Origin: an uncultured Gammaproteobacteria bacterium
GTDB lineage: Bacteria > Pseudomonadota > Gammaproteobacteria > UBA4575
NCBI GenBank assembly: GCA_943789445.1
Contig: CALSUC010000002.1
Location: 12,256 to 76,255 of the forward strand
Direction: 5' to 3'
Length of the DNA: 64,000 nt
Part shown: piece by piece, positions 13,838-40,700 of the stretch
Layout: the number at the start of each line of letters is the position of its first letter
How positions within the stretch are numbered: the stretch's first letter is position 1
Position numbers and translations under genes: made by a program
Notes under the pieces: model-generated
Told to the model about the DNA's origin: nothing
The model's database searches: none
What the model saw: only the letters and a program-made list of their open reading frames with translations

Positions 13838-14648
13838 TTACGCGATTTATCTGCGGAACAATGGTGCGCTTGGGGTCTATGAAAACGGCGCTAACAAGGG
13901 GACGTTCGGTAGCTATGCGACAGGCGATGTACTGAGTGTTGAGCGTACTGGCTCGACGATTACCTACCTGAAAAATGGCTCGGTATTCTACACCTCAACA
14001 GTTGCTTCGACGGGTGATTTGCATGTGGATACCTCGTTGTATACGACAGGTGCTACATTGAACGACATCGTCATCAAAGGGGATAACCTGACTGCAGGCG
14101 CCACAGACTTCATTGCCTCTAGCGCTAATTTTTCGGTTAATACCGTCACGCCAACCATCACCATTGCTGATGTCGCGGGCGACAACACCATTAACTACCT
14201 TGAAGACGATGTCGACGTGGCTATCTCAGGTACCACCACGGGGGTGGAAGATGGGCAAGTTCTGACCGTGACACTGAATGGCAAGGATTACCAAGCGACG
14301 GTTTCAGGCGATGCCTGGAGTGTGGATGTGCCAGCAGCAGATGTGCAAGCATTAGCAGAGGGTAACCATAGCGTTACCGCCAATGTAACGAATGCAGTGG
14401 GTGTCGCAGCGGCTGAGGCCAGCAAGGCCATTATCCATAACAGCACAGCACCGCTGACCATTACCCTGGACGATACAGCTCTGGCGGCGGGTGAAACCGC
14501 AACGGTCACCTTTACCTTTAATGAGGCCGTCACTGGTTTCGATAACAGTGATATAACCGTGGAAGGCGGCACGTTATCAGCCGTGACTTCAGCGGATGAT
14601 GGCATCACCTTGGACAGCAACGTTCACGCCGACAGCGGACATCAATGA
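13791..14648 (+). CDS. Adhesin 2 fragment ORF (285 aa) covering modules B, C and A.
   Basis: ORF track. Confidence 0.45.
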   Translation: MVFLTAIPMLSYTTIDYAIYLRNNGALGVYENGANKGTFGSYATGDVLSVERTGSTITYLKNGSVFYTSTVASTGDLHVDTSLYTTGATLNDIVIKGDNLTAGATDFIASSANFSVNTVTPTITIADVAGDNTINYLEDDVDVAISGTTTGVEDGQVLTVTLNGKDYQATVSGDAWSVDVPAADVQALAEGNHSVTANVTNAVGVAAAEASKAIIHNSTAPLTITLDDTALAAGETATVTFTFNEAVTGFDNSDITVEGGTLSAVTSADDGITLDSNVHADSGHQ

Positions 14649-16876
14649 TACCACTAACCTGATTAAAGTGGGCTACGATTGGACCTATGTTTCTTCGGGT
14701 AACGCACCCGCTGTTGAGCAGGTCAACGCAGCCTTTACCACGGTAGCGCCAGTGGGTGTGACTGTTACTGGTAACAGCATCACCAAAACGGCGGCGGATG
14801 GCTGGTAATGCAGGCACCTTCTCGGATCAGGTCATCACTGCAGATGGCTCGGTATTCGACTACGGTAGCTGAAACGAATACGCATCGTATGATTGGTCTT
14901 TCTGACAGCGATACCAATGCTAAGCTATACCTCGATTGATTACGCGATTTATCTGCGGACAATGGTGCGCTTGGGTCTATGAAAACGGCGCTAACAAGGG
15001 GACGTTCGGTACTTATGCGACAGGCGATGTACTGAGTGTTCAGCGTACTGGCTCGACGATTACCTACCTGAAAAATGGCTCGGTATTCTACACCTCAACA
15101 GTTGCTTCGACGGGTGATTTGCATGTGGATACCTCGTTGATACGACAGGTGCTACATTGAACGACATCGTCATCGACTCAGGCGCCACAGACTTCATTGC
15201 CACTAGCGCTAATTATTTGGTTAATACCGTCACGCCAACCATCACCATTGCTGATGTCGCGGGCGACAACACCATTAACTACCTTGAAGACGATGTCGAC
15301 GTGGCTATCTCAGGTACCACCACGGGGGTGGAAGATGGGCAAGTTCTGACCGTGACACTGAATGGCAAGGATTACCAAGCGACGGTTTCAGGCGATGCCT
15401 GGAGTGTGGATGTGCCAGCAGCAGATGTGCAAGCATTAGCAGAGGGTAACCATAGCGTTACCGCCAATGTAACGAATGCAGTGGGTGTCGCAGCGGCTGA
15501 GGCCAGCAAGGCCATTATCTATAACAGCACAGCACCGCTGACCATTACCCTGGACGATACAGCTCTGGCGGCGGGTGAAACCGCAACGGTCACCTTTACC
15601 TTTAATGAGGCCGTCACTGGTTTCGATAACAGTGATATAACCGTGGAAGGCGGCACGTTATCAGCCGTGACTTCAGCGGATGATGGCATCACCTTGGACA
15701 GCAACGTTCACGCCGACAGCGGACATCAATGATACCACTAACCTGATTAAAGTGGGCTACGATTGGACCTATGTTTCTTCGGGTAACGCACCCGCTGTTG
15801 AGCAGGTCAACGCAGCCTTTACCACGGTAGCGCCAGTGGGTGTGACTGTTACTGGTAACAGCATCACCAAAACGGCGGCGGATGGCTGGTAATGCAGGCA
15901 CCTTCTCGGATCAGGTCATCACTGCAGATGGCTCGGTATCGACTACGGTAGCTGAAACGAATACGCATCGTATGATTGGTCTTTCTGACAGCGATACCAA
16001 TGTAAGCTATACCTCGATTGATTACGCGATTTATCTGCGGACAATGGTGCGCTTGTGGTCTATGAAAACGGCGCTAACAAGGGGACGTTCGGTACTTATG
16101 CGACTGGCGATGTACTGAGTGTTCAGCGTACTGGCTCGACGATTACCTACCTGAAAAATGGCTCGGTATTCTACACCTCAACAGTTGCTTCGACGGGTGA
16201 TTTGCATGTGGATACCTCGTTGATACGACAGGTGCTACATTGAACGACATCGTCATCAAAGCGGATAACCTGACTGCAGGCGCCACAGACTTCATTGCCA
16301 GTAGCGCTAATTTTTCGGTTAATACCATCACGCCAACCATCACCATTGCTGATGTCGCGGGCGACAACACCATTAACTACCTTGAAGACGATGTCAACGT
16401 GGCTATCTCAGGTACCACCACGGCGGTGGAAGATGGGCAAGTTCTGACCGTGACACTGAATGGCAAGGATTACCAAGCGACGGTTTCAGGCAATGCCTGG
16501 AGTGTGGTGTGCCAGCAGCAGATGTGCAAGCATTAGCAGAGGGTAACCATAGCGTTACCGCCAATGTAACGAATGCAGTGGGTGTCGCAGCGGCTGAGGC
16601 CAGCAAGGCCATTATCTATAACAGCACAGCACCGCTGACCATTACCCTGGACGATACAGCTCTGACGGCGGGTGAAACCACTCAGGTTACCTTTACCTTT
16701 CATGAGGCCGTCACGTGGAAAATTTTGACATCAATGATATTGCGGTTGAAAACGGCACCCGTTCATCGAGTCCTGTCGACTTCAGATGATGTGGAATAAC
16801 TTCACAGCAACATTAACGCCAGATTCTGCCGCGGCCGATAGCACCAATAAAATTTCCGTGGGTAATCGCTGGAACT

Positions 16877-18220
16877 TTGTTGGGTCTGCTCCTGAATCGG
16901 GTAATAAACCGGTTGTGTTTGTATCAGAAGTTGGTGTGGACACGATTGGTAATAATATTTTTAAAACGGCGGCGACTGGCTGGTAATGCAGGCACCTTCT
17001 CGGATCAGGTCATCACTGCAGATGGCTCGGTATCGACTACGGTAGCTGAAACGAATACGCATCGTATGATTGGTCTTTCTGACAGCGATACCAATGTAAG
17101 CTTTACCTCGATTGATTACGCGATTTATCTGAGGAGCAATGGTGCGCTTGCGGTCTTTGAAAACGGCGCTAACAAGGGGGAGTTCGGTACTTATTCGAGT
17201 GGCGATGTACTGAGTGTTGAGCGCTTCGGCTCGACGATTACCTACCTGAAAAATGGCTCGGTATTCTACACCTCAACAGTTGCTTCGACGGGTGATTTGC
17301 ATGTGGATACCTCGTTGCATACGACAGGTGCTACATTGCAAAATGTGGTTATCAATAATGGCGAGTTGGTTAGCAGTAATAATTATGCGGTGAACACTCT
17401 GACGCCAACCATTAATATTGATGCGATTGCCACAGATAATGTTTTGGATTTCGTTGAAGATAATCACTCGTTGCTTGTCACCGGTACAACCACCAACGTA
17501 TCAGATGGGCAAGTGGTGACTGTGACTATCGCCGGTGTCGAGTATACGAGCAGTGTGACGGGTAATGTATGGGGCGTTAAGGTGCCGCAGGCGGTTGCTG
17601 CGGCGCTATCCTCAAGCGTTACGGTGGCTGTGAGTGTCAGTAACGCATCAGGCGTTAACGCAACGGCCAATACGACTTTCACTCACACTACTGATGAGCC
17701 TGTGGTCATTACTATCAGTGATAATGATATAGATTCATCAGAAACGGCCGTGGTTACCTTCCGGTTCAAGGAGGCTGTTACAGACTTCGAGCTTGCTGAT
17801 ATTAATGTGGATTCAGGCACCTTATCTAATCTTGTTAGCACGGATGGCGGTACAACCTTCACCGCGACCTTTACACCAACACCGGGTGTGAAGAGCGACG
17901 TCAGCAAAATCTCGATTGGTTCCAATTGGACGTATCAGTCGTCTGGTGCATCGCCTGTAGTATCAGACATCAAGGTCGCCTTTGAAAATGAAGTGGGTGT
18001 TGATGTAACTACTAATAATATTGTCAAAACAGGATTTGCTGGTTGGACTTCAGGTGCCTTTTCTGAGAATTCCCTGGCAGGGGATGGTTACGTTGCAACT
18101 ACGGTAGCTGAAACGAATACGCATCGTATGATTGGTCTTTCTGACAGCGATACCAATGTAAGCTTTGACACGATTGATTACGCGTTTATCTGCGTGCAAT
18201 GGTGCGCTTGTGGTCTTTGA
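16877..18220 (+). CDS. Adhesin 2 fragment ORF (447 aa) spanning the diverged repeat copies B, C', A'' and B'.
   Basis: ORF track. It is ~50% identical to the homogenised copies (TVAETNTHRMIGLSDSDTNVSF is retained). Confidence 0.5.
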   Translation: MLGLLLNRVINRLCLYQKLVWTRLVIIFLKRRRLAGNAGTFSDQVITADGSVSTTVAETNTHRMIGLSDSDTNVSFTSIDYAIYLRSNGALAVFENGANKGEFGTYSSGDVLSVERFGSTITYLKNGSVFYTSTVASTGDLHVDTSLHTTGATLQNVVINNGELVSSNNYAVNTLTPTINIDAIATDNVLDFVEDNHSLLVTGTTTNVSDGQVVTVTIAGVEYTSSVTGNVWGVKVPQAVAAALSSSVTVAVSVSNASGVNATANTTFTHTTDEPVVITISDNDIDSSETAVVTFRFKEAVTDFELADINVDSGTLSNLVSTDGGTTFTATFTPTPGVKSDVSKISIGSNWTYQSSGASPVVSDIKVAFENEVGVDVTTNNIVKTGFAGWTSGAFSENSLAGDGYVATTVAETNTHRMIGLSDSDTNVSFDTIDYAFICVQWCACGL

Positions 18221-18448
18221 AAACGGCATTAGCAAGGGGGCGTTCGGTAGCTATGCGACAGGCGATGTACTGAGTGTTCAGCGTACTGGCTCGACGATTA
18301 CCTACCTGAAAAATGGCTCGGTATTCTACACCTCAACAGTTGCTTCGACGGGTGATTTGCATGTGGATACCTCGTTGGATACGACAGGCAGTACATTAAA
18401 GAATATTGTGATCAGCGATGGAAGGCTTGCACCAGCAGCGATTACAGC

Positions 18449-19153
18449 GTGGATACGCAGTTTAGTCTTGAAAATGCTAGCGTGGCGGGTAATCAAGTTG
18501 TGCTCACCTTTGATGCGACGATTAATGCACTTAGCACTCCGTCACTTCAATCTTTTGATATTCAGGTTGATGGCGCGACCAGAAACGTTACGGCGATTTC
18601 CTTTTCGGGCAATACGGCTACGTTAACCATTGATGGAAAAGCGGTGGTTGATACTGATTCAGTCGAATTCTCTTATAGTCAGCTAGGTTCTGCTGGTTTT
18701 GAGAGTGCTGCGGGAGCTGTTGTTGCTAATAACAACATTGAGGCTGTGTTTGGCACCACAGGTAATAATGCTATTTCTGGAACCTCTGCCAGTGAATATG
18801 TGTTTGGTGGCAGTGGTAATGATACTATTACTGGTGGTGCTGGGAATGATATTCTGACAGGTGGCGCTGGTAGCGATACTTTTGATTACAACAACACTAC
18901 AGATGGCAGCGACACCATTACCGACTTTACCGTGGGGAGTGGTGGTGACAGCTTAGATTTACGTGACCTTTTAGATTACGCTAGTGGTGATACCTTAGCT
19001 GACTACATTGAATTGACAAACGATGGGACAGACGTCACCTTAAAAATAGATAAAGACGGGGGCGGTGATGAATTTACCAGCCCTGATGTAACAATTACTC
19101 TACAAGGGATCAATGATGCAGCAGGTTACTTTGGCATCACTAGAGACCGATAA
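18449..19153 (+). CDS. C-terminal fragment of adhesin 2. It carries a unique beta-rich region, RTX repeats and the T1SS C-terminal target domain.
   Basis: Contains GGSGNDTITGGAGNDILTGGAGSDTFDY and DSLDLRDLLDY. The stop is followed by the terminator copy. Confidence 0.7.
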   Translation: MDTQFSLENASVAGNQVVLTFDATINALSTPSLQSFDIQVDGATRNVTAISFSGNTATLTIDGKAVVDTDSVEFSYSQLGSAGFESAAGAVVANNNIEAVFGTTGNNAISGTSASEYVFGGSGNDTITGGAGNDILTGGAGSDTFDYNNTTDGSDTITDFTVGSGGDSLDLRDLLDYASGDTLADYIELTNDGTDVTLKIDKDGGGDEFTSPDVTITLQGINDAAGYFGITRDR

Positions 19154-21489: not shown

Positions 21490-24400
21490 CTAGTTGTTTC
21501 TACGCAGCGTGCGACGCCAATCAAACTGCAATAGGCTTGGGATTAAGATCAGTGTAAAGAGTGTACTGACAATCATGCCACCGACAATCACTGCGGCCAA
21601 ACCGCGATAGAGCTCAGAGCCAGCGCCAGCAAATAAGACTAAAGGCAGCATGCCAAAGACAGTAGTCGTAGTGCTCATTAAGATAGGGCGTAAACGGGTA
21701 CGCACGGCTGTGCGCACAGCATCTAGGCGATTAGCACCGGCACGTTCTGCATTGCGTGCTTGGTAGACTAATAAGATCGCATTGTTTACCACTAGACCTA
21801 ATAAAATAATGAAGCCGATCATGGTTAAGAGGTCGGCTGATAACCCAAGGATGTGTAATGCTGCAACGCCACCAATGGTCGCTAAAGGTAATGCCATCAT
21901 TACTAGTAGGCTGTCTGTGAACGAGCGGAATAGCGCGGCCATCAGTAGTAATAAGATAATCAATGCGATGGTGAAGCTACCACTGAGGTTCTTGATCGCT
22001 ATGCTCAGGCTATCGGCTGAGCCACCATAGAGGATCACACCATCAGCGGGTAATAGTGGTTCTAATAAGGGTTCTATCTCTGATTTAATAATAGTGATGG
22101 CCTGTTCTAATGGGACATCTTCCGGTGGCGTGACCTCTAGTGTCACGGTGCGTCGTCGATCTAGGCGGCGGATCTGACTGGCGCCAGCGGTGCGTTCGAT
22201 GCTGGCTAATTCGGCAAAGGGTACAACACTACCGTTAGCCGTCGATAGTGGGATGGCGGCAATTTCTTCAGGCGTGTGCCACTGTGGAATTTTCAGGATA
22301 ACGTCTAGGCGTTCTTCACCATCGAAATACTCACCAACCTTGAGGCCATCACCTAAGACCTGCGTGACCTTAGCCAATGTTTGTCGGTTCCAGCCAGCTT
22401 CTTGCAGACGGTCATCATGTGGCTTGAATTGTAATTCAGGCTCGGCTAACTCCAAGCCAGGGCGTGGCCGCACTCTGGCGCCAGGTATCTTTTGTGGAAT
22501 GGCGGTAAAACCTACCCGTGCGGCCTCGAGTAAGGCGTCAATATTGCGCCCTTGAATGTTGATCTCAATCTCACGATTGGCACCAAAGCCTGAGAATAAA
22601 GAGGCCTTGCGCACGACTGCAAAGGTATCAGGAAAACCACTGACCGCCTGACTTAATACCTTGACCAGTTCATCGACTTTATTCGGGTCTTCTGCCCGGC
22701 CACCGATAAAGATCGAGCCAGAGCGTGCAACAAAAAAGTATTGTTTAATCTTTGGCTCTTTCTCGCCAGTCATATAAGGCTGGATGCGATCAGCAATGAT
22801 GTCGCCCATCTCATCTTTAATATGATTAATATTGACACCCGGTGGCGGCAGGATGAAGCCAAAGGCAAGATTGCGATTGCCGGTAGGGAGGTAATCGCGC
22901 TCAGGGAAAAACTGCCATGAGCTGGCTATCGGTATGATGATTAAGCCAGCGACTAAGGCGATGCGTAGTTTCGGTGAGCGCGTCAGATTGACTATTTTAT
23001 TACTTGCTGAATCCCATTTTGTGGCGAGGTGGTCTTCAAATTTTGCTCGACGTAACCAGACCATGCTGGCGGCTGGAATCAAGATAGTGGCAACCAACAT
23101 AGAGGCGATGATAGCGGCAGTAATCGCAATCGCTAAATCAGAAAACAGTTGGCCACTTTGATCACGTAAAAACAGGATCGGTAAGAAGATCGCGACTGTG
23201 GTTGCGGTGGAAGCGAGTAAGGCCGGCCAGACTTCTTGCGTGCCTTTTAAGGCGGCATCAAAACCCGAGTAACCTTTTTCACGTAATCGTACAATGTTCT
23301 CCAGTACGATGATCGCGGCATCCATTACCATGCCGACGGCAAAGGCGAGGCCGGCAAGTGAAACGACATTGATCGATTTACCGACGCCTAAGATGACTAC
23401 AAAGGCGATGCAAAGACACAGAGGGATGGTGATGGTGACAACCAGAGTGGCACGGAAGTGACGTAAGAAAAACCAGAGTATGACGACCGCTAGTAAAATG
23501 CCGATACCGAGATTGCCACGTAGTAATTCAATCGCGCTATGGATGTAAACCGTTTCGTCATAGACCTGTTCAATGCTGAGCTCAGCGCGTTTTAATGGGC
23601 CCTGACGTAGCTCGTTCATGGCGAGATCTAAATCGCGCATCACATCTAAAACGTTAACACCATTTTCGCGATAGGCATTGACCGCAATGGCGGCTTTACC
23701 CCGGGTGATGACGAAATTATCGCGTTTGGCATTGCGCACTTCTACCGTTGCGATATCGCGTAGGTAGATAGGCTTGCCATCACGCCATTCTAAGATCAGG
23801 TTTTGTAGGTCCTGTGGTGAGAGACCGCCAATATAACGCAGTGTGTATCGGCGCTTGCCGACATCGGCACTGCCGCCAGAAACATCATCATTGCCACCAA
23901 CTAGCTGTACCGTCTTGCTTAGATCAACACCTTTGCCTGCGGCTAGGTAGGGGTCGACAGTGATGCGAATCTGTTGTTGGTTGCCACCGCGTATCTCAGA
24001 CATGGCGACACCGGGTACCCGTTCAAAACGTGACTGAATGACTTCTTCTACGTAGTCGCGGTAGTCCTCAATATCATTTTCATTTTCGGCCGTGGGCTTA
24101 ATAATGAACCAAGCAATCGGACGACTACGGCCACCGGCGGTACTGAGGATCGGCTCGTCGGCGTCATCGGGGTAGCTGGAGACGCGGTTTAAGCGGTTGA
24201 TGACCTCAATCAGCCCACGCTGTAAATCAAAGTCGACATCAAAGGCGATGGATATTTTGCCTTGGCCCTGACGTGCCTCAGAGAGTAGCTCGGTCATGCC
24301 GGGCAGGCCACGCAGTTGTTGTTCCTGCGGCTCTATGATTTCTGATTCAACTTCTTCGGGTGCCGCTGCACGCCAATTGGTTTTGATGGTGATCTCTGGG

Positions 24401-24525
24401 CGTTCCACCTCAGGGGTGAGTTGTACCGGTAGCTTGTCTAAGGCGAGTAGGCCAAAGAGGATCACCAGTAGGCCGGCTACTAGGCCAGCGGTGGGGTTGC
24501 TTAAGGCGCCGCGAGTGAGACTCAT
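21490..24525 (-). CDS. RND family efflux permease (AcrB/HAE-type, 1011 aa).
   Basis: 12-TM RND topology with large periplasmic loops. It is translationally adjacent to the membrane fusion protein (MFP) upstream. Confidence 0.9.
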   Translation of the reverse strand: MSLTRGALSNPTAGLVAGLLVILFGLLALDKLPVQLTPEVERPEITIKTNWRAAAPEEVESEIIEPQEQQLRGLPGMTELLSEARQGQGKISIAFDVDFDLQRGLIEVINRLNRVSSYPDDADEPILSTAGGRSRPIAWFIIKPTAENENDIEDYRDYVEEVIQSRFERVPGVAMSEIRGGNQQQIRITVDPYLAAGKGVDLSKTVQLVGGNDDVSGGSADVGKRRYTLRYIGGLSPQDLQNLILEWRDGKPIYLRDIATVEVRNAKRDNFVITRGKAAIAVNAYRENGVNVLDVMRDLDLAMNELRQGPLKRAELSIEQVYDETVYIHSAIELLRGNLGIGILLAVVILWFFLRHFRATLVVTITIPLCLCIAFVVILGVGKSINVVSLAGLAFAVGMVMDAAIIVLENIVRLREKGYSGFDAALKGTQEVWPALLASTATTVAIFLPILFLRDQSGQLFSDLAIAITAAIIASMLVATILIPAASMVWLRRAKFEDHLATKWDSASNKIVNLTRSPKLRIALVAGLIIIPIASSWQFFPERDYLPTGNRNLAFGFILPPPGVNINHIKDEMGDIIADRIQPYMTGEKEPKIKQYFFVARSGSIFIGGRAEDPNKVDELVKVLSQAVSGFPDTFAVVRKASLFSGFGANREIEINIQGRNIDALLEAARVGFTAIPQKIPGARVRPRPGLELAEPELQFKPHDDRLQEAGWNRQTLAKVTQVLGDGLKVGEYFDGEERLDVILKIPQWHTPEEIAAIPLSTANGSVVPFAELASIERTAGASQIRRLDRRRTVTLEVTPPEDVPLEQAITIIKSEIEPLLEPLLPADGVILYGGSADSLSIAIKNLSGSFTIALIILLLLMAALFRSFTDSLLVMMALPLATIGGVAALHILGLSADLLTMIGFIILLGLVVNNAILLVYQARNAERAGANRLDAVRTAVRTRLRPILMSTTTTVFGMLPLVLFAGAGSELYRGLAAVIVGGMIVSTLFTLILIPSLLQFDWRRTLRRNN

Positions 24526-24531
24526 GTTGTT

Positions 24532-25587
24532 TTATTTGTTCGCTTTGAAGACAGTACTAGTGACGCTAGTGCCTGCGCGCAAGCGTTCGCCACCGCGTAC
24601 AACAATGGCGTCGCCAGCAGCGATATCACCAATCGCTTCAATGTAGTCGCCATCACCCATGCCGATCTCTATAACGACCTGTTCGGCAATATTATCGGCA
24701 TTGACTTTAAACACCGTGGTGCTGCCTTTGCGTAGTACTAAGGCGTCACGGTGTATTGAGACAACATTACGTGCCGCTGTAAAAGGCAGTCTGACACGAA
24801 CCAATGTACCTGGTGCAATGGCCTTTTCTGGGGTTAAGCGTACTTCAAATAGACGTGAGCTATTGATGCTGGCTGGTACGATTGAATGCACAATTGCACT
24901 GCTGGATTGTTGGTTTAGCAAGACTTCGAGCTGGCTGTTGATCTGGATTAGACCGATCATCTGCGCTGCGATATAGACTTGGATTTCATTACTGTTTAGG
25001 TCGACAAAACGTACCACGGTATCGCCTGTCTTTAGCCATTCACCTATTTGAACCGTGCGTTCTGTTACTACACCGTCGTAGGGTGCAATGATCTTGGAGC
25101 GTTTAATACGCTCTTCAATTTGCATTAAACGGGCTTGAGCAGCACGCATATCACTTTGTGCGATCTGCAGGGAGGTCTGTGTTTGATCTAGTTGGTCGCG
25201 TGCCACACTGTTCGATTTGAGTAGCGCTTGATAACGCCGCACCTGTTTTTTAAATAGTGCGACACTGGCTTGCTCACTGGCGACGGTGGCTAGCTGTTCT
25301 TCTCTTTGTTGTTGTAAGAAGACGTCATCCAGAGTGGCAATGGCTTGGCCTTTTTTTAGCGCAGTGCCGACTTCAACAATAGCGGTTAGGCGGCCTTCAA
25401 TTTCGGCGGCTATGCGAATGTCATTCTTGCTCAGGCTGATACCGGTATAAAGTACGGTAGGCGCTAATTGACGGATCTCGGCGGTATCGACAACCACTGG
25501 CTTGCTGCGACCCGCGGCGAAGCTGAGATTGCTACAAATTAGGAGCGCGCTAACAAGCGTCGTGAGAATGATCTTCATGGTAATCAA
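24532..25587 (-). CDS. RND efflux membrane fusion (periplasmic adaptor) protein.
   Basis: Has a signal/TM anchor, coiled-coil hairpin and beta-barrel domains. It lies 7 bp upstream of the RND gene. Confidence 0.85.
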   Translation of the reverse strand: MITMKIILTTLVSALLICSNLSFAAGRSKPVVVDTAEIRQLAPTVLYTGISLSKNDIRIAAEIEGRLTAIVEVGTALKKGQAIATLDDVFLQQQREEQLATVASEQASVALFKKQVRRYQALLKSNSVARDQLDQTQTSLQIAQSDMRAAQARLMQIEERIKRSKIIAPYDGVVTERTVQIGEWLKTGDTVVRFVDLNSNEIQVYIAAQMIGLIQINSQLEVLLNQQSSSAIVHSIVPASINSSRLFEVRLTPEKAIAPGTLVRVRLPFTAARNVVSIHRDALVLRKGSTTVFKVNADNIAEQVVIEIGMGDGDYIEAIGDIAAGDAIVVRGGERLRAGTSVTSTVFKANK

Positions 25588-25714: not shown

Positions 25715-26680
25715 TTAATCTTCACTAAGTGCACCAGAACAACTACTGCCCTGACCCGCAGTGCAGCCATAACAGTGTTGTCCAATCATAATTTCGGCAT
25801 TATCTAGACTGTTTTCTAATAGCATAGATAGATGCTTTTTCGATTGATCGGGGTTTTCTAGGGGCATCTCTAGCATCTGATTGAAGTCGCAGTCATATAA
25901 GTAGCCCTGCCAATCAACACTGATGGTGTCACGGCACATGACGTTGTCGATATTATCGATTTGGTGGGCATTTTTTAGCGTATCTAGATAACTATGAAAG
26001 TTACCCTTAGCCGCCAAGGTGCTGCCAAAACGCTTGATAGGCATGTTGGTGATGACAAATAACTGATTGAATTTTATAGAGAATCTTTCATCTAGCTGGG
26101 TTTTGTAATCCATTTCTAGGGCCGCTTGTGGTGGCGGTAATACGGCACCAATGGGGTTATACACTAGATGCAGGCGACGCTCGTTGTCGATGGCATAACC
26201 TAGGCTATTGAGTAGTTTAAGTGCCTCGATACTCTTGCTAAAAACACCTTTGCCACGCTGTAGGTCAACATTCAGCTCTGAGTAGCAGGGCAATGAGGCA
26301 ACCACCTCTACCTGTTGCTCGGCTAGAAATTCAGCAAGACCTTCTTCCCCTGGCTCAAATAGCACGGTGAGATTGCAGCGATCACGCACATTCAGCCCAG
26401 CCTGTCGGGCATGACGCACTAAGGCGCGAAATTGTGGGTGTAGCTCGGGTGCACCACCGGTTAGATCTAATAGTTTAAAGCGGCCGGAGGCGATCACCTT
26501 AAATAAGATCGCCATATTCTCATCATCCATCATCTCGGTACGTGTGGGACCGGCGTTGACGTGGCAGTGAACACAGCTTTGATTGCAACGATAACCCAGA
26601 TTGACCTGCAAAGTATCACTGGATTGTCTGCGGATTTGGGGGAAATCGCTGGGGAATAATAGGGGTTTAGTTTCGCGCAT
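25715..26680 (-). CDS. Radical SAM/Cys-rich domain protein of the ArsS family (TIGR04167-like, 'arsenosugar biosynthesis radical SAM protein'-type).
   Basis: N-terminal CNQSCVHCHV (a CxxxCxxC radical SAM cluster motif) and a C-terminal Cys-rich tail (C..C..HCYGCTAGQGSSCSG) typical of DUF3641. Confidence 0.75.
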   Translation of the reverse strand: MRETKPLLFPSDFPQIRRQSSDTLQVNLGYRCNQSCVHCHVNAGPTRTEMMDDENMAILFKVIASGRFKLLDLTGGAPELHPQFRALVRHARQAGLNVRDRCNLTVLFEPGEEGLAEFLAEQQVEVVASLPCYSELNVDLQRGKGVFSKSIEALKLLNSLGYAIDNERRLHLVYNPIGAVLPPPQAALEMDYKTQLDERFSIKFNQLFVITNMPIKRFGSTLAAKGNFHSYLDTLKNAHQIDNIDNVMCRDTISVDWQGYLYDCDFNQMLEMPLENPDQSKKHLSMLLENSLDNAEIMIGQHCYGCTAGQGSSCSGALSED

Positions 26681-26699
26681 AAGTTACGTTACTAGATCA

Positions 26700-28826
26700 C
26701 TAGCCTAAGCGCCATGCTTGATAGCGTTGTAGTAATTGTTTGGCTCGGTCGCTAAAGCGTTCGCGTCGCCATTTTCCAGCAACAAAGCGATTGATTTCAC
26801 TGCGACTTGGGTAGAGGTGGATGCTTTGTAGAATCTTGTTCAAACCTAGGCCGTGGGTTCTAGCGAGGACAAATTCATGGATCAGTTCGCTGGCGCCTTC
26901 TGACACTATCTGTACACCTAGTATCTTGTCGCTGTTAACTGGTGTTAAGACCTTAATAAAGCCTGAATCGTGCTCATCGGTGATGGCACGATCAATCTCA
27001 TCCATATCAAAGCGCGTAACCGTATAATCGATTTTTTGTTGTTTGGCGGCTTCTTCATTCAGGCCTAAGGAGGCTATCTCTGGATCGGTAAAGATCGCCA
27101 GCGGTACGTGATCTAGGCTGCAGCGAAAGCGCTTAAACGGGGCGAAGCTGGCGTTGGCTGCAGCGTACCAGCCTTGATGTGCAGCGACATGGGTGTAATT
27201 AAGTGGGCTGGTGACATCACCACAGGCATAGACATTATTAAAGCGTGTCTGTAGATAGTTGTTGCTGACTAGGCGTCCCTGTTCATTAGTTTCTAGGGCT
27301 AGGGCTTCTAGGCCAGTCAGGTTGGCTTGTCGCCCTACGGCTACTAGTAGGTGGCTGAACTCGACCTGTAGGCTGTTGCCATATTGTTCACCAATAAGGC
27401 GTGAACCTGCATCTGTTGTTTCATAACGCAGGCTTTTAAAGCCTGGGAACAGTTTCACACCATCGGCGATTAAGGCTTGTTCTACCACTGCTGCGAGTTC
27501 GGGGTCTTCACGGTTTAAGATATGCTCAGATGGAAAAATCATGCTGACTTCTGCACCTAGGCGTTGAAAAGCCTGCGCCAGTTCACAGCCTATCGGGCCA
27601 GCACCGATGATTAATAGCTGTTGCGGTAATGTCTGTAATGACCAAATATTATCGCTGGTGTAATAGTTGATCTCGCTGATGCCAGGTAAATCTAAGGTGT
27701 TGGGGCGTGCGCCAGTGGCGATGGTAATGTTGCGGGTATTGAGTACCTTGCCATTGACCTCAACCTGCCAAGGTGAGATGACTTTGGCCTGACCTTGGAT
27801 GCAATCGACTCCTAGTTCACGGTAGCGTTGGCGTGAGTCTTTTGGTGCGATGCGGGCGATTTTATTCATGATGCGTTGTCTAACATCACCAAACTGTAGC
27901 TGGTAGTCGACTTGGGCTACGCCATAGTGCTGCGCTTGATTCAAGCTATGTACGTATTTCGCACTGCGTAAGATCGATTTTGACGGTACACAGCCAGTAT
28001 TTAAGCAATCACCACCCATATCGGAGGCTTCAATTAAGGCAACTTTGGCTTGTAGCGTGGCACTGCTATAAGCGGCGACTAGGCCGCCGGCACCACCACC
28101 GATGACGATGTTGTGATAGTCAAACTGCTTGGGTCGTTGAAAACCTCGATAGGCCCTACGCTGGCGCAGGATCTGCATAAATTTGTTGGCGGTTAGTGGG
28201 AACAGGCCTAGTAATAAGAAACTAAGAATCAGCTTCAGCGAGAGGATATCCTGAGCTGATCGGATGCTAGCCAGCTGCACACCGGCATTTACATAGACCA
28301 TGGTCGCTGGCAGCATGCCGAGCTGGCTGACCCAATAATAAGTGCTTAGACGTATTGGCGTCATTGCGGTGACGACATTGACCAGGCCAAACGGGAACAG
28401 TGGGACCATGCGTAAGAAGAACAGATATAAGGCACCTTCTTCTTCAACCTTTTGATTAATCTTTTTTAAGGTCTCGGCATAGCGTGTTTGGATCCAGTCA
28501 CGGGCGATATAACGAGCGATCAAGAAGGCTAGACTAGCGCCAATAGTGGAGGCGAAGGAGACAATAAACAGGCCTTTGCTAAAGCCAAATATGGCACCTG
28601 CAGCTAGCGTCATGATGGCCGCCATCGGTAGGGAGAACGCCGTCACGATGACATAGAATGCAAAAAACAGGCTAGCAAATTGCACAGGCTGGTCGTGAAA
28701 TGCCTGCGCCAGTTCACTTTGCCGATCTTGCAGACCAGCGAGACTCCAATCAATGTTGGATGCTGAGAGTAAAATGAAGGTAAAGCAAGAGATAGCTGCA
28801 ATCAGTAAAAGAGCTTTTTTCATCAT
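26700..28826 (-). CDS. Bifunctional TVP38/TMEM64 (DedA-like) membrane domain fused to a class-I pyridine nucleotide-disulfide oxidoreductase (mercuric reductase/dihydrolipoamide dehydrogenase-like).
   Basis: The N-terminal ~220 aa are polytopic membrane. Then come a GGGAGG FAD motif, the redox-active disulfide GGDCLNTGCVPSK, a second GAGPIG NAD motif and a C-terminal dimerisation domain. It lies 19 bp upstream of the rSAM gene on the same strand. Confidence 0.8.
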   Translation of the reverse strand: MMKKALLLIAAISCFTFILLSASNIDWSLAGLQDRQSELAQAFHDQPVQFASLFFAFYVIVTAFSLPMAAIMTLAAGAIFGFSKGLFIVSFASTIGASLAFLIARYIARDWIQTRYAETLKKINQKVEEEGALYLFFLRMVPLFPFGLVNVVTAMTPIRLSTYYWVSQLGMLPATMVYVNAGVQLASIRSAQDILSLKLILSFLLLGLFPLTANKFMQILRQRRAYRGFQRPKQFDYHNIVIGGGAGGLVAAYSSATLQAKVALIEASDMGGDCLNTGCVPSKSILRSAKYVHSLNQAQHYGVAQVDYQLQFGDVRQRIMNKIARIAPKDSRQRYRELGVDCIQGQAKVISPWQVEVNGKVLNTRNITIATGARPNTLDLPGISEINYYTSDNIWSLQTLPQQLLIIGAGPIGCELAQAFQRLGAEVSMIFPSEHILNREDPELAAVVEQALIADGVKLFPGFKSLRYETTDAGSRLIGEQYGNSLQVEFSHLLVAVGRQANLTGLEALALETNEQGRLVSNNYLQTRFNNVYACGDVTSPLNYTHVAAHQGWYAAANASFAPFKRFRCSLDHVPLAIFTDPEIASLGLNEEAAKQQKIDYTVTRFDMDEIDRAITDEHDSGFIKVLTPVNSDKILGVQIVSEGASELIHEFVLARTHGLGLNKILQSIHLYPSRSEINRFVAGKWRRERFSDRAKQLLQRYQAWRLG

Positions 28827-28902
28827 AGGCTTCCACGGGGTCAGAGGTATCGGATGAGGCTTTAAATTACCGCAATGCTTACATCCACGTGAACTAGGAT
28901 GT

Positions 28903-29835
28903 ATGATTTTGCCTTTATTATCCAGTCATGCAGTGAGTCATATGCGTTTAATTAGTTATCATTTTCAAGGAAAAGTTCAGCTTGCAGTTGAACTGGGTCA
29001 AAAAGTATTTTTACCACTACTAGATAGCCGCTGGGATCAGAGGATTGATTCTATGTTGGCGTTGATCGATGCTGGTGATGCTGCATTGGCACAGTTGAAA
29101 ATACTAGCTGCTGAGCCTGAAGCTGCCAGTCTATGTGCATTTGCCCCAGAACAGCTTAGCTCACCGATCCCACGACCACGACAAAACGTGATGTGCCTAG
29201 GCCTGAATTACAAGGATCATGTGGCGGAAACTAATACGGATCCAACACAGGAGGTCAAATTACCACGCTCACCGATTGTCTTTACTAAGGCGGCCAATAG
29301 TATGAATGGGCCTTATAGTGATATCGCAATTGATACAGCTATCTCAGCGAAGATGGACTGGGAGTCTGAGCTGGCGGTGATTATTGGTAAGGGTGGCATC
29401 GGTATTAGAGAAGAAGATGCGATGCAGCATGTCTTTGGTTACAGTGTATTGAATGATGTCACTGCCAGAGATCGCCAAAAATGGCATAAACAGTTTTTTA
29501 TCGGTAAGAGTTATGCTGGTTGTTGCCCGATGGGGCCGGCTATTGTGACCGCCGATGAGATTGCTGATCCACATGACTTGGCTATTCGTAGTTGGGTTAA
29601 TGGTGATCTCAAACAAGAATCGAATACCTGTCACCAAATCTTCAGTATCGCGAATGTTATTGCAGTTTTGTCACAGGGTATGCAGTTAGAAGCAGGTGAT
29701 ATCATTGCTACCGGGACGCCAGAGGGTGTTGGCTATGCCCGTACACCGCCAGAGTATTTAATGCCTGGTGACGTGGTTGAATGCGAAGTAGAAGGGATTG
29801 GCAAGATCGCAAACCGCATAACGCAAAGAACGTAA
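28903..29835 (+). CDS. Fumarylacetoacetate hydrolase (FAH) family protein. The start may instead be the Met at 28942.
   Basis: C-terminal FAH fold motifs (..VFGYSVLNDVTARD.., GKS, GTPEGVG). Confidence 0.7.
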   Translation: MILPLLSSHAVSHMRLISYHFQGKVQLAVELGQKVFLPLLDSRWDQRIDSMLALIDAGDAALAQLKILAAEPEAASLCAFAPEQLSSPIPRPRQNVMCLGLNYKDHVAETNTDPTQEVKLPRSPIVFTKAANSMNGPYSDIAIDTAISAKMDWESELAVIIGKGGIGIREEDAMQHVFGYSVLNDVTARDRQKWHKQFFIGKSYAGCCPMGPAIVTADEIADPHDLAIRSWVNGDLKQESNTCHQIFSIANVIAVLSQGMQLEAGDIIATGTPEGVGYARTPPEYLMPGDVVECEVEGIGKIANRITQRT

Positions 29836-37023: not shown

Positions 37024-39999
37024 ATGAAAGAGACAGCTATGGCCTCAACTTTTAAGGGACTACCAATCGCCCTCAACCTGCCGCAGTTCGAAAACCACGA
37101 GAAGCAAGAAGGAAAGTACACCACCTGTTATATGTGTGCTTGTCGCTGTGGTATCAAAGTAACTGTCGAAGATAACGAAGTACGATTTATCCAGGGTAAC
37201 AAGAACCATCCAGTGAATAAGGGTGTGCTCTGTGCCAAGGGTAATGCAGGCATTATGAAGCAAAAATCGCCGGCTAAATTACAGCAGCCGATGATGCGTA
37301 AGAAAGGCAGCGAGCGTGGTACCGGTGAGTTTGAGCCAGTATCATGGGATGTCGCGCTAGATTATTTATCAGAGCGTTTAGAAAAGATCCGTAATACTGA
37401 TCCTAAGAAGCTTGCATTCTTTACTGGTCGTGACCAGATGCAGGCTTTAAGTGGTCTTTGGGCACAACAGTACGGCACCATTAACTGGGCGGCCCATGGT
37501 GGTTTCTGTTCAGTCAATATGGCGGCAGCAGGACTCTACTCGATTGGTCATGCATTCTGGGAATTTGGTGATCCTGATTGGGATAACACTAAGTACTTCA
37601 TGCTTTGGGGCGTGGCCGAAGATCATGCATCCAATCCAATTAAAATTGGTTTAGAAAAGATTAAGCGCCGTGGCGCTAAGTTTGTCTCGATTAACCCAGT
37701 ACGTACGGGTTATCAGGCGATTGCCGATGAATGGGTGCCTATTAAGCCGGGTACTGATGCGATTCTCGCGCTGTCGATGATTCACGTTTTGATGAAGAAT
37801 GATTTATTCGATTGGGAATATTTGGTTCGATACACCAATTCACCTTACTTGGTTTACAACACACCAGGCGAAAGCACCGATGGTTTGATCTGTCGCGATG
37901 CTGAAGGCAATCCACAGTCTTGGGATCTTGAGAAAGAAGCCCTAGTGGATGGTAGTCTGCCTGAGATTAAGCCTGCTCTATTTGGTGAATACACTTCAGC
38001 CGACGGTAAGGCGCTGAAGACAGTATTTACACTATTAGCAGAACGCTACTTAGATGATCAGTACTCACCAGCAGAAGCCAGCAAAGTATGTGGTGTTGCA
38101 GCTGATGACATCGAACGCATGGCCTTAGAAATGGCGCATGTTGCGTTTGAAGAGACGATTGAGATTAATTGTGAATGGACTGACTGGGCCGGTCGTAAGC
38201 ACGACAAGTTCATTGGTCGTCCTGTGTCTATGCACGCGATGCGTGGTATTTCAGCGCATTCCAACGGCTTCCAAGCCTGTCGTGCGATTCACTTATTACA
38301 AATTATGTTGGGTTCAGTGGATGTTCCAGGTGGTCACTTGGCCAAGCCTCCATTCCCGAAACATATTGTGCCACCGATCAAGCCGGCCAAGCCGACTTCG
38401 CCGGGGCAGCCGCTTAACTCACCACCTTTAGGTTTCCCAACCTGTCCTGAAGATTTGGTTATCGATGATGATGGTAAGCCATTGCGAATCGATAAGGCCT
38501 ATTCATGGGATGCACCGATTGCTAATCATGGCTTGATGCATATGGTGATTACCAATGCGGTCAAAGGCGATCCCTACCCGATTGATACCCTGATCATCTT
38601 TATGGCGAACATGAGTTGGAACTCAACCATGAACACCAGCTCAGTGCGCGATATGCTGACCGAGAAAGATGAGAGCGGTGAAAAAGATGAGAATGGCGAC
38701 TATAAATACAAGCTACCGTTCTTAGTCGTAGCCGATGCCTTCCATTCTGAAATGACAGCCTTTGCTGACTTGATCCTTCCAGATACAACGTACTTAGAGC
38801 GATACGATACGATTTCGATTCTCGATCGTCCGATCTCTGAGCCTCACGCTGTCTGTGATGCGATTCGTGCGCCAGTGATTGAGCCTGATCGTGATGTACG
38901 ACCATGGCAGGAAGTGTTGGTTGATTTAGCGACTCGTCTGAAGTTCCCAGCCTTTACGAAGGAAGATGGTAGCCCGAAATATGAAGGCTATAACGATTTC
39001 GTTATTAATTATGAGAAGGCACCAGGTCTTGGCTTCCTCGCCGGTTGGCGTGGTGAAGACGGTAGCAAATCATTGCGTGGTGAGCCGAATCAAAACCAAT
39101 GGCAAGACTATATCGATAACGAATGTTTCTTTGAGCATAAGTTACCGAAGGAGCATCACTACTACCGCTTCGCTAATAAAGGGTATTTAGAGTTTGCCAA
39201 AGAGTCTGGCTTTATTGGTTCATCTAAGCCGATTATTATGGAGCTGTACTCTGAGTCCTTGCAGAAGTTCCGTCTTGCAGGTCAGGGTTTATATGATGGT
39301 CCTCAACCAAAGAATGATTACGATAAGCATCGCATGGTGACTTATTTTGATCCGCTACCGGATTACTATGAGCCGTTAGAGCAGCAAGCGACTTCATCGA
39401 CTGAATATCCGTTCTTTGCGATTACCCAGCGTCCAATGATGATGTATCACTCATGGGATTCGCAGAATGCCTGGTTACGTCAGATTTTGGCTCAAAACTA
39501 TATGTACATGAACCGCCAGAAAGCGGAAGAAATGGGTATTGTTGATCTGTCATGGATTTGGGTTGAGTCTGAAAATGGCAAGATCCGCGTTCAAGTAAAA
39601 TTGATGGAAGGTGTTGAGAGCAACACCATCTGGACGTGGAATGCGATTGGTAAACAACGAGGTGCTTGGGGATTAGATCCTACGGCGAACGAATCGAATG
39701 ATGGCTTCTTGCTGAATCATTTGATCAGTGAGCATCTACCGTCTAAGTCGGCCGATCGCGCAGTGACTAACTCTGATCCAATTACGGGGCAAGCAGCTTG
39801 GTATGATTTGCAAGTGAAGATCTATCCAGCGGCAGCAGGCGAAACAGGTACATGGCCTACTTTCGATACGATTAAGCCGATGCCAGGTGCAGAAAAGCCG
39901 GTGTCTAAGCTTCAATATCAAACACATAAAGCAGTTGGACTGCATCGTTCGATGCGCGACATTCTGACTCGCGGCAAGACTAAAAGGGATGATTCATGA
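37024..39999 (+). CDS. soeA: DMSO reductase-family (CISM) molybdopterin oxidoreductase catalytic subunit with no Tat signal. It is a candidate SoeA (cytoplasmic sulfite dehydrogenase large subunit).
   Basis: 991 aa. An N-terminal C-x2-C-x3-C-x27-C [4Fe-4S] motif (CYMCACRC...GVLCAKG) is present. There is no RR motif and no possible N-terminal extension, because an in-frame TAA sits 9 nt upstream. It is followed by an FeS subunit and a DmsC-type anchor, which is the architecture of SoeABC. Confidence 0.5.
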   Translation: MKETAMASTFKGLPIALNLPQFENHEKQEGKYTTCYMCACRCGIKVTVEDNEVRFIQGNKNHPVNKGVLCAKGNAGIMKQKSPAKLQQPMMRKKGSERGTGEFEPVSWDVALDYLSERLEKIRNTDPKKLAFFTGRDQMQALSGLWAQQYGTINWAAHGGFCSVNMAAAGLYSIGHAFWEFGDPDWDNTKYFMLWGVAEDHASNPIKIGLEKIKRRGAKFVSINPVRTGYQAIADEWVPIKPGTDAILALSMIHVLMKNDLFDWEYLVRYTNSPYLVYNTPGESTDGLICRDAEGNPQSWDLEKEALVDGSLPEIKPALFGEYTSADGKALKTVFTLLAERYLDDQYSPAEASKVCGVAADDIERMALEMAHVAFEETIEINCEWTDWAGRKHDKFIGRPVSMHAMRGISAHSNGFQACRAIHLLQIMLGSVDVPGGHLAKPPFPKHIVPPIKPAKPTSPGQPLNSPPLGFPTCPEDLVIDDDGKPLRIDKAYSWDAPIANHGLMHMVITNAVKGDPYPIDTLIIFMANMSWNSTMNTSSVRDMLTEKDESGEKDENGDYKYKLPFLVVADAFHSEMTAFADLILPDTTYLERYDTISILDRPISEPHAVCDAIRAPVIEPDRDVRPWQEVLVDLATRLKFPAFTKEDGSPKYEGYNDFVINYEKAPGLGFLAGWRGEDGSKSLRGEPNQNQWQDYIDNECFFEHKLPKEHHYYRFANKGYLEFAKESGFIGSSKPIIMELYSESLQKFRLAGQGLYDGPQPKNDYDKHRMVTYFDPLPDYYEPLEQQATSSTEYPFFAITQRPMMMYHSWDSQNAWLRQILAQNYMYMNRQKAEEMGIVDLSWIWVESENGKIRVQVKLMEGVESNTIWTWNAIGKQRGAWGLDPTANESNDGFLLNHLISEHLPSKSADRAVTNSDPITGQAAWYDLQVKIYPAAAGETGTWPTFDTIKPMPGAEKPVSKLQYQTHKAVGLHRSMRDILTRGKTKRDDS

Positions 40000-40688
40000 A
40001 ATTAGGATTAGTTGTCGATCTAGACACTTGTGTCGGCTGTAATGCCTGTGCAGTTGCGTGTAAGCAGTGGAATACTTCGGGTACCACTGGGCCGTTAACT
40101 GATTTGGAACCTTACGGCAAAGACCCAACGGGTGTTTGGTTTAACCGTATTCGTAACTATGAGCTGGGCGACTACCCAGATAACAAGACTGTGCATTTCC
40201 CAATGTCTTGTATGCATTGCGAAGATGCGGCTTGTGTCACGGTATGTCCTACAGGCGCTTCTTATAAGCGTGAAGAAGACGGTATCGTTTTAGTCGATCA
40301 AGATAAATGTATGGGTTGTAACCTCTGTGCATGGGCCTGTCCTTATGGCGCACGTGAGCTTGATCCTGAAGAAGGCGTGATGAAGAAGTGCACCCTTTGT
40401 GTCGATCGAATTTATGACGAAGCCTTGCCAGAAGATGAGCGTCAACCAGCCTGTGTTATGACCTGTCCTGCACATGCACGATTCTTTGGTGACTTTGATG
40501 ATCCAAACTCAGAAGTTTCTAGACTCTCTCGTGAGCGTGGTGGTGAACATTTAATGCCAGAGCTTGGTTACAAGCCGGTGAATACTTATCTACCACCGCG
40601 TAATAAGCCAAATATTCCAACTTACAAAAACGAAACTAATCCAATTGAAAAAGTGAAAGATTGGGTTAACCGTTTAGTTGCACGATAA
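39996..40688 (+). CDS. soeB: Four-cluster 4Fe-4S ferredoxin-type subunit (DmsB-like) with no Tat signal. Candidate SoeB.
   Basis: Has CxxCxxCxxxC groups (CVGCNAC, CMHCEDAAC, CMGCNLCAWAC, CTLC..). It overlaps the catalytic-subunit gene by 4 bp. Confidence 0.5.
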   Translation: MKLGLVVDLDTCVGCNACAVACKQWNTSGTTGPLTDLEPYGKDPTGVWFNRIRNYELGDYPDNKTVHFPMSCMHCEDAACVTVCPTGASYKREEDGIVLVDQDKCMGCNLCAWACPYGARELDPEEGVMKKCTLCVDRIYDEALPEDERQPACVMTCPAHARFFGDFDDPNSEVSRLSRERGGEHLMPELGYKPVNTYLPPRNKPNIPTYKNETNPIEKVKDWVNRLVAR

Positions 40689-40700
40689 AAAGGAATCCAG

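Follow-up and report, generated by a model that had tools for sequence, protein, structure and literature searches.

Of the enzymes that form arsenosugars, only ArsS has been characterised. In cyanobacteria, this radical S-adenosylmethionine (SAM) protein combines the 5'-deoxyadenosyl radical of SAM with trivalent dimethylarsenite, DMAs(III), to give 5'-deoxy-5'-dimethylarsinoyl-adenosine, and the adenosylation of DMAs(III) is the biochemical property known for the cyanobacterial enzyme alone (PMC13598754, PMC12159101). Since the reaction is redox-neutral (PMC12159101), any reductase must act before or after the ArsS step. The family, TIGR04167, is a listed selenoprotein family with a GxxU motif (PMC13188914). 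Among DedA membrane proteins of COG0398, the commonest fusion is with PF07992/PF02852, which was reported with neither a function nor a link to ArsS (Todor et al. 2023, PMC10127716). Here, we describe a locus in which the two meet. In a 64-kb stretch of DNA from an uncultured marine gammaproteobacterium (the window, by which we mean the whole stretch analysed), a gene for an ArsS-family protein lies directly behind a gene that fuses a DedA domain to a flavoprotein resembling mercuric reductase (MerA). This pairing is not due to chance, and, apart from two transferases, nothing accompanies ArsS as persistently as DedA together with a MerA-like flavoprotein. The ArsS family, the fusion architecture (catalogued and with a RefSeq name) and clusters annotated as 'arsenosugar biosynthesis' were already known. 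In the literature searched, a systematic link between ArsS and the pair of DedA and MerA-like reductase appears to be undescribed, as do lineages retaining solely ArsS and the fusion, and no study of the role of the reductase partner was found.

The two genes and their diagnostic segments, from the start of the fusion gene to the end of the ArsS gene, are the following.

26700-28826, minus strand: gene of the fusion protein, 708 amino acids (aa), ATG start (open reading frame with Pfam and NCBIfam matches)
28131-28826, minus strand: DedA/VTT (TVP38/TMEM64-type) membrane domain, residues 1-232 (PF09335, 84 bits, residues 70-183)
26700-28130, minus strand: class-I pyridine-nucleotide disulfide oxidoreductase domain, MerA-like, residues 233-708 (best model NF004991)
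27990-28007, minus strand: redox-active CLNTGC, C274 and C279, residues 274-279 (the sole two invariant cysteines in 32 fusion homologues)
26787-26837, minus strand: ILQSIHLYPSRSEINR segment, including S-I-H-L-Y-P-S-R-S-E, with Tyr672 at the acid-base His position of disulfide reductases
26681-26699, minus strand: intergenic spacer between the fusion gene and the ArsS gene, 19 nt, TGATCTAGTAACGTAACTT
25715-26680, minus strand: gene of the ArsS-family radical SAM protein, 321 aa, ATG start, cysteine form (open reading frame, TIGR04167)
26564-26587, minus strand: CNQSCVHC, the CX3CX2C radical SAM cluster motif, C32/C36/C39, residues 32-39 (invariant in 22 homologues)
25739-25777, minus strand: HCYGCTAGQGSSC, the C-terminal Cys-rich motif, with C314 at the position of selenocysteine (Sec) in selenoprotein members

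A preliminary description of this DNA had reported two same-strand genes with a 19-bp gap, the first joining a DedA/TVP38 domain to a complete disulfide-reductase flavoenzyme with CLNTGC, FAD and NAD(P) motifs, and all of this was borne out. Both reading frames were recovered with exactly the expected boundaries on the minus strand. The membrane domain matches VTT (PF09335) well above the gathering score of 33.9, and residues 239-677 carry three Pyr_redox domains (Pyr_redox_2, 192 bits; Pyr_redox, 64 bits; Pyr_redox_dim, 95 bits). Besides the redox-active pair, the FAD motif GGGAGG (243-248) and the NAD(P) motif GAGPIG (408-413), both of the GxGxxG type, were located. The two genes are probably co-transcribed because their gap is 19 bp, the corresponding spacer measures 1-16 bp in orthologous loci, and a terminator scan of the 19-nt spacer gave no terminator-like hairpin. 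The pair is not new to databases, as NCBI records of metagenome-assembled genomes already name its products 'arsenosugar biosynthesis radical SAM protein ArsS' and 'FAD-dependent oxidoreductase', and the identical ArsS sequence is present on 43 public contigs.

Profile matching places the downstream protein in the ArsS family at the level expected of an orthologue. It reaches 444.9 bits on TIGR04167 (cut-off 300), with residues 16-318 covering profile positions 2-303 of 303, and the runner-up NCBIfam family scores 40 bits. Pfam detects Radical_SAM and DUF3641 (PF12345, 188 bits), and the HCxGCTAGxGSS(C/U) motif of the latter domain is found as HCYGCTAGQGSSC, with Cys at the Sec position. All ten conserved cysteines of the family are present, and the protein shares 44% identity along its entire length with the arsM-adjacent ArsS of Pseudanabaena. 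No solved ArsS structure exists. In an AlphaFold2 (AF2) model (pLDDT 87) the tail 313-321 is disordered, and the nearest solved folds are SPASM/twitch-type radical SAM enzymes at a template-modelling (TM) score of ~0.5. The family assignment made in the preliminary description thus holds, and the PqqE/MoaA-type identity that it had named as the alternative was rejected, since MoaA models give at most 29 bits versus 445 bits for ArsS, and the structural neighbours SkfB, BlsE, EpeE and MoaA reach only TM ~0.5 at 12-17% identity.

The same architecture as in the window fusion was found in all of its 120 best homologues, and the RefSeq name of its homologues is 'bifunctional TVP38/TMEM64 family protein/FAD-dependent oxidoreductase'. 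Its membrane domain may fall in the COG0398 branch: RefSeq calls full-length homologues 'TVP38/TMEM64 family', and the PF07992/PF02852 fusion is reported to be typical of COG0398 (PMC10127716). The AF2 model (pLDDT 83) consists of a helical membrane domain (2-225), the reductase and two C-terminal helices (676-707). Residues H670, Y672, P673 and E677 are invariant over 38 fusion homologues; Tyr672 stands five residues ahead of the conserved Glu, and its counterpart in 5x1y is the Tyr of MerA. This position holds Tyr in MerA but the acid-base His in glutathione reductase and lipoamide dehydrogenase, and the exchange of His for Tyr marks a site that, as in MerA, reduces metal(loid)s and not disulfides. 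MerA 5x1y is also the best match in the PDB (248 bits). By its sequence features, the flavin domain is nevertheless MerA-like and not MerA. A true MerA was rejected because the domain scores 347.4 bits on TIGR02053, under the cut-off of 454.45, and it has neither the C-terminal Cys pair nor the N-terminal metal-binding domain; no Cys occurs past residue 569, so that the C-terminal two-helix extension is Cys-free.

The preliminary description had made its case depend on a neighbourhood census, and this census came out in favour of a conserved pairing. A scan of one genome per species gave at least 598 loci encoding ArsS relatives. The 80 most similar ones (56-62% identity; beta- and gammaproteobacteria with a few others) were searched by tblastn with both halves of the fusion, up to 10 kb from ArsS. 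Both halves were found in 31 of these 80 loci, and in 26 of the 46 that are well flanked (at least 5 kb on each side of ArsS), where our rough estimate of the chance expectation for a single-copy gene that close is ~0.5%. In 24 of the 26, they share the strand of ArsS, often at a distance of 8-300 bp, and about half of the DedA-reductase genes in well-flanked loci are less than 300 bp from ArsS. Gene order and intervening genes differ among the loci, so the pairing does not reflect one inherited block. DedA and reductase are split into adjacent genes in two of them (L032 and L061). Similarly, at least 27 contigs of matching size are common to the 120 best matches of ArsS and of the fusion. In the lineage of the window, the gap stays at 1-19 bp over fusion identities of 53-90%, and the flanking genes are syntenic too. 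Finally, ArsS and the fusion alone are kept, with the transferases gone, in this lineage and in six further loci (L001, L002, L033, L042, L053 and L078).

In cyanobacteria, the group in which ArsM and ArsS were characterised, the same two components exist as separate genes in arsM-arsS operons. In Pseudanabaena galeata pPg_02 the order is TVP38, 'mercuric reductase' (519 aa), arsM, TVP38 and arsS, all on one strand; Leptolyngbyaceae JSC-12 has TVP38, reductase, arsM, TVP38 and arsS, and Synechococcus PCC 7502 has arsM, VTT and arsS. On NF038099 (cut-off 400), the Pseudanabaena arsM product reaches 570 bits; the arsS product of the same operon reaches 416 bits on TIGR04167. The reductase of this operon gives 833 bits on NF004991 (cut-off 620), the model that ranks first for the window flavin domain, with which it shares 38% identity over 444 residues, the H-x-Y-P segment and the Cys-free C-terminal extension. 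Both TVP38 proteins are 33-38% identical to the window DedA domain. Judging from these alignments, the window fusion joins, in Rosetta-stone fashion, two genes that are accessory members of genuine arsM-arsS operons, and it is this separate occurrence that suggests a stripped-down arsenosugar-type cluster for the window pair. Other cyanobacterial loci are organised differently. In Leptolyngbya ohadii and Thermocoleostomius sinensis, whose loci have no adjoining arsM or DedA gene, a small gene of the carboxymuconolactone-decarboxylase (CMD) family (AhpD-like, 110 aa) directly precedes arsS (L099 5630-5962; L100 5659-5991), and CMD-family genes recur in proteobacterial islands.

In proteobacteria, ArsS is usually followed by the two transferases, a GT2-type TIGR04283 protein (238 bits vs a cut-off of 182) and a DUF2064 protein of TIGR04282 (197 bits vs 134), one or both of which occur in 39 of the 46 well-flanked loci. 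Also recurrent are an MTAP-type phosphorylase (TIGR01694, 321 bits vs a cut-off of 275), DUF547, DUF3047, a sodium/solute-symporter-like membrane protein and an unannotated family of ~360 aa. ArsM-like methyltransferases were found in 12 of the 80 loci; they score 169 bits on NF008823, below its cut-off, and by our reading of their sequences they carry the four cysteines typical of ArsM. Such genes accompany the fusion in 5 of the 31 proteobacterial loci and on an Acinetobacter plasmid. Related loci also hold a PiT phosphate transporter and an MTAP-like phosphorylase, and three of them (L055, L061 and L070) gave a match to an ArsC whose motif points to the low-molecular-weight phosphatase type. 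A complete arrangement is seen in Acinetobacter portensis pJNE5-X3_NDM-1, where arsS is followed by the fusion, DUF547, TIGR04283, TIGR04282, a methyltransferase and a phosphate transporter, with mtnP nearby. On this comparison of gene content, the window pair is best described as what remains, in reduced form, of a larger cluster of known type that comprises genes for TIGR04283, TIGR04282 and an MTAP-like phosphorylase.

Three protein families of these clusters deserve mention in their own right. The first (cluster c8, 340-400 aa, without Pfam or NCBIfam match) is encoded just after ArsS (representative L062 10872-11963; also in L011, L012, L024, L033, L034, L043, L044, L046, L053, L069, L074 and L078); its GDFNWFN, HGD-like and Cys-Gly-Cys motifs may be those of a divergent metallophosphoesterase. 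A possible parallel is Car1, an arsenate reductase of the metallophosphoesterase type with Cys-x-Cys (PMC12124457). The second is the DUF547 protein found with the fusion (representative L069 15660-16502), which has a signal peptide and an NCASIGCP motif; this CxxxxC has the spacing of the reductase dithiol, which hints at a periplasmic thiol-redox partner. The third is another radical SAM family beside the fusion (L088 7037-7966 and L089 11917-12858, 61% identical to each other), with 24% identity to the ArsS core, scores below the TIGR04167 cut-off and an Rv1681-like best match. It ends in the ArsS-like motif HHRCxSCFxYGxSCS, and its neighbours are an ArsM-like methyltransferase (Methylohalomonas lacus) or DUF2064 and a phosphorylase (Tara contig).

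The reading that we prefer, and that we regard as evenly poised between acceptance and rejection, is that the window pair is a stripped-down arsenosugar-type cluster whose fusion reduces a pentavalent metalloid in order to feed ArsS. It starts from what is observed, namely the families to which the proteins belong, a pairing that is conserved, separate genes for the two parts in arsM-arsS operons and a MerA-like active site. Electrons from NAD(P)H would pass through FAD to C274/C279 in the cytoplasmic flavin domain, and the resulting dithiol would reduce a methylated arsenical in oxidised form, most likely a pentavalent one of the kind that arises readily in air. This would happen at the membrane, with DedA as an anchor or a conduit, and would supply or regenerate the trivalent species, which is labile in air and whose lone pair is required by ArsS. 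With neither arsM nor the transferases nearby, the substrate might come from genes at another place in the genome or enter the cell as dimethylarsinate, and the adenosylated product might be processed elsewhere or exported, possibly via the adjoining RND pump described below. The substrate, the direction of the hand-over and the role of the pump are what we infer here. This reading would fit the persistence of the association with ArsS, the Tyr-type site, the aerobic or oxygenic hosts and the redox-neutral ArsS reaction. The idea of the preliminary description, in which a reductase coupled to the membrane passes a reduced species on to the radical SAM enzyme, is plausible.

A sharper proposal is that the fusion and its split form constitute a dedicated membrane NAD(P)H-dependent reductase of the pentavalent methylated arsenicals DMAs(V) and MAs(V), which we put forward tentatively and consider unlikely. 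We know of no bacterial gene assigned to the reduction of pentavalent methylated arsenicals. Our literature checks on this reduction returned the glutathione-dependent route only; glutathione-dependent reduction of MAs(V) was reportedly described by Huang in 2022. If the proposal is true, ArsM-less marine bacteria such as this one could feed dimethylarsinate from seawater to ArsS, a route into organoarsenical synthesis by scavenging that bypasses methylation.

Several observations weigh against a role of the fusion as supplier of ArsS. In the 64-kb window, tblastn gave no match to ArsM-like, TIGR04283 or TIGR04282 proteins, confirming the earlier remark that arsM is not nearby, and ars resistance genes are absent from it as well. 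A redox-neutral ArsS needs a reductase only if its substrate arrives oxidised. Although NF004991 (PRK06370.1-3) is the best model for the flavin domain, the score of 449.6 bits is under the cut-off of 620. Above all, the fusion is not specific to ArsS. Among plasmid records, 89 carry the full-length fusion and just 54 carry ArsS, 49 of the latter from Burkholderia, and outside Burkholderia and Acinetobacter the fusion plasmids are without ArsS. A conserved ArsS-free unit consists of the fusion, DUF547, an ABC importer (SBP_bac_8 type), a CDP-alcohol phosphatidyltransferase and a fatty-acid hydroxylase; it was found in Pseudoalteromonas, Catenovulum, Falsirhodobacter and E. coli IncC pYDC637, and in part in Sphingopyxis. 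One metagenomic homologue (P0239) adjoins a patatin lipase, and no ArsS is found up to 8 kb away from it. Finally, COG0398 DedA proteins have been proposed to be phospholipid scramblases, not ion channels (PMC10127716). Any ArsS-specific role of the fusion is therefore to be held loosely in view of these ArsS-free contexts.

The strongest competitor of our preferred reading builds on the same contexts. The fusion would be a general accessory of membrane, lipid or thiol-redox metabolism and not a supplier of the ArsS substrate: DedA would flip a phospholipid or a lipid-linked product, the flavin domain would keep a membrane-proximal thiol, quinone or lipid reduced, and in ArsS clusters the protein would act downstream, for example on products of the arsenosugar-phospholipid type, or protectively. 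The phosphatidyltransferase and fatty-acid hydroxylase of the second conserved context, the lipase neighbour and the proposed scramblase activity all speak for it, and so do the accessory genes common to ArsS-type and ArsS-less clusters (DUF547, fatty-acid hydroxylase, CMD, HAD-II and an extracytoplasmic-function (ECF) sigma factor). However, the window, L001, L002, L033, L042, L053 and L078 keep fusion and ArsS together without a nearby lipid gene, a site with the MerA-like exchange of His for Tyr speaks for a small substrate, inorganic or organometalloid, and against a disulfide, and the DedA domain has no conserved Cys that could carry electrons across the membrane. Altogether, we rate this explanation as serious though unlikely.

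A TonB receptor gene often precedes the ArsS-free unit, and genes for an ECF sigma factor and for CMD and HAD-II proteins lie close to it. Its loci (L101 8995-16294; L102 8001-16256; L103 6929-13197; L104 7001-14960) vary in content: E. coli IncC (L101) has a FAD-dependent oxidoreductase of ~356 aa in the place of DUF547, Falsirhodobacter (L103) has neither, and the fatty-acid hydroxylase was seen in Pseudoalteromonas and Catenovulum. The operon looks like an uncharacterised phospholipid head-group pathway. A betaine/choline type for its ABC binding protein, which would point to arsenocholine, was rejected, as the protein is of the SBP_bac_8/1 type. In E. coli pYDC637 (L101 6216-8703) and on a B. 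glumae plasmid (L106 4515-6930), the fusion comes directly after a DUF2282-DUF692-'DNA-binding domain'-DoxX operon, which we take to be a bufferin-type operon for a copper-binding ribosomally synthesised and post-translationally modified peptide. An ECF sigma factor with a zf-HC2 anti-sigma factor, CMD and HAD-II are also near in L101 and L106, which suggests a metal/oxidative-stress island.

A second alternative makes the reductase dedicated to ArsS itself, the Cys/Sec tail (C306...C314) entering the CLNTGC site in trans and being kept reduced. The large thioredoxin reductases, whose GCUG tail acts in cis, offer a parallel. Here ArsS, and not ArsM or the transferases, is the common denominator of the association; its disordered tail 313-321 carries the Cys/Sec, the reductase has no C-terminal redox centre of its own, and the distant radical SAM family with a similar C-terminal HxCxxC...SSC motif is also found beside the fusion. 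Against this, Tyr has taken the place of the acid-base His that thiol-disulfide exchange requires, the fusion commonly occurs where no ArsS-like gene is present, and ArsS catalysis is redox-neutral, which together make such a tail reduction distinctly unlikely.

The preliminary description had suggested a chalcogen or metalloid as substrate. In the chalcogen form of this reading, DedA would take up selenite or tellurite, the flavoprotein would reduce it, and the radical SAM protein would adenosylate the Se or Te species. The preliminary description had argued that without arsM the substrate is unlikely to be methylarsenite, a step that is undercut by the presence of the same DedA-reductase pair in genuine cyanobacterial arsM-arsS operons, and by the ArsM-like genes in 5 of the 31 loci. 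The lack of arsM in the window and of an adjoining ArsM in 85% of related loci would still suit a chalcogen, as would the listing of TIGR04167 among selenoprotein families (PMC13188914) and a DedA protein tied to selenite resistance, as far as Ledgham 2005 is cited in PMC10127716. A Sec residue in an enzyme, however, is uninformative on its substrate, and the in-frame TGA/SECIS check that had been proposed went the other way, as the C-terminal motif reads GSSC with a Cys codon, and no TGA at the Sec position, in all 74 readable orthologues. The recurrent partners are arsenic-related (ArsM-like, ArsC-like, PiT), with the pair inside true arsM-arsS operons, and no selenium-metabolism genes were seen among the annotated genes of the window or of related loci. 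A chalcogen pathway is very doubtful on these grounds.

That the fusion is a membrane-anchored mercuric reductase, adjacent to ArsS through inherited synteny without functional meaning, is extremely improbable: the MerA 5x1y match, the MerA-type Tyr and the synteny of flanking genes within the lineage are outweighed by the missing C-terminal Cys pair and NmerA domain, the sub-threshold TIGR02053 score (347 < 454), the absence of merR, merT and merP from the neighbourhoods read, and an adjacency that recurs in unrelated surroundings across beta- and gammaproteobacteria and cyanobacteria.

The immediate surroundings of the pair comprise four further features.

28903-29835, plus strand: FAA-hydrolase gene, divergent neighbour of the fusion gene
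28827-28902, no strand: divergent intergenic region, 76 bp, common to the fusion gene and the FAA-hydrolase gene; presumed promoter region
24532-25587, minus strand: gene of an RND membrane-fusion protein, 127 bp downstream of ArsS, conserved only in the lineage of the window
21490-24525, minus strand: gene of an RND (AcrB-type) efflux permease (ACR_tran, 620 bits), lineage-specific neighbour

Promoter consensus searches in the 76-bp region gave weak matches only, not above chance in shuffled controls. The counts of the terminator scan were likewise not above shuffled controls, and a weak hairpin seen downstream of ArsS at 25668-25648, before the membrane-fusion protein gene, lacks significance. 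Scans with Rfam and for tRNAs gave no matches in the window. The membrane-fusion protein gene may be part of the same unit as ArsS. The order of fusion, ArsS, membrane-fusion protein and RND permease is also seen in L001, L002, L081-L087 and the P0208 contig, and the RND pair is absent from the remaining 78 ArsS loci; an RND pump as universal partner of ArsS was thus ruled out, being limited to the lineage of the window plus L001 and L002.

Elsewhere in the window, positions 1-19153 (plus strand) hold ~25 short same-strand reading frames with GTG or TTG starts, all with Big_12 Ig-like repeats, two of which (9357-9908 and 18449-19153) also contain RTX nonapeptide repeats. The region looks like one or two giant RTX/Big_12 adhesin genes with many frame shifts, from mis-assembly of repeats or as a pseudogene, and its GC content is 0.52 compared with 0.47 in the rest of the window. 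A molybdopterin oxidoreductase complex is encoded at 37024-41645 (plus strand), with a catalytic subunit of 991 aa, a 4Fe-4S subunit of 230 aa and a membrane subunit of 314 aa. It falls far below every curated cut-off (best PhsA-like, 203 bits vs 694), and it is conserved ~8 kb from the ArsS-fusion pair in related contigs.

These results give the commonest DedA fusion a defined genomic context and make DedA with a MerA-like reductase a concrete candidate for a redox or transport step of arsenosugar formation. Their value is tempered by the names that both genes already bear in databases and by at least one ArsS-free context, so that the role of the fusion may exceed arsenic.

In comparison with known systems, the window pair resembles Synechocystis sp. 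PCC 6803 ArsS and the cyanobacterial arsM-arsS operon in its TIGR04167 membership, CX3CX2C motif, C-terminal Cys-rich motif and accessory TVP38/DedA and NF004991-type reductase (with a presumed Synechocystis gene order of slr0303 to slr0305). Unlike that operon, it has no neighbouring arsM as in Synechocystis, nor any within 64 kb, its accessory proteins are fused, and an RND pump follows. The 'arsenosugar biosynthesis' clusters of RefSeq also have ArsS adjoining the same fusion, at identities of 57-62% for ArsS and 44-56% for the fusion, whereas the lineage of the window has lost or relocated the transferases, phosphorylase, DUF547 and methyltransferase, and TIGR04283 and TIGR04282 are missing from beside its ArsS. 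With MerA (Tn501, Bacillus, Lysinibacillus 5x1y), the window protein shares the class-I flavoprotein fold, a CxxxxC next to FAD and Tyr for the catalytic His; it differs in lacking the C-terminal Cys-Cys that hands Hg(II) to the active site and a mer operon, and in having an N-terminal DedA domain and a Cys-free C-terminal extension. Finally, its architecture is exactly that of the COG0398 fusions of Todor et al.

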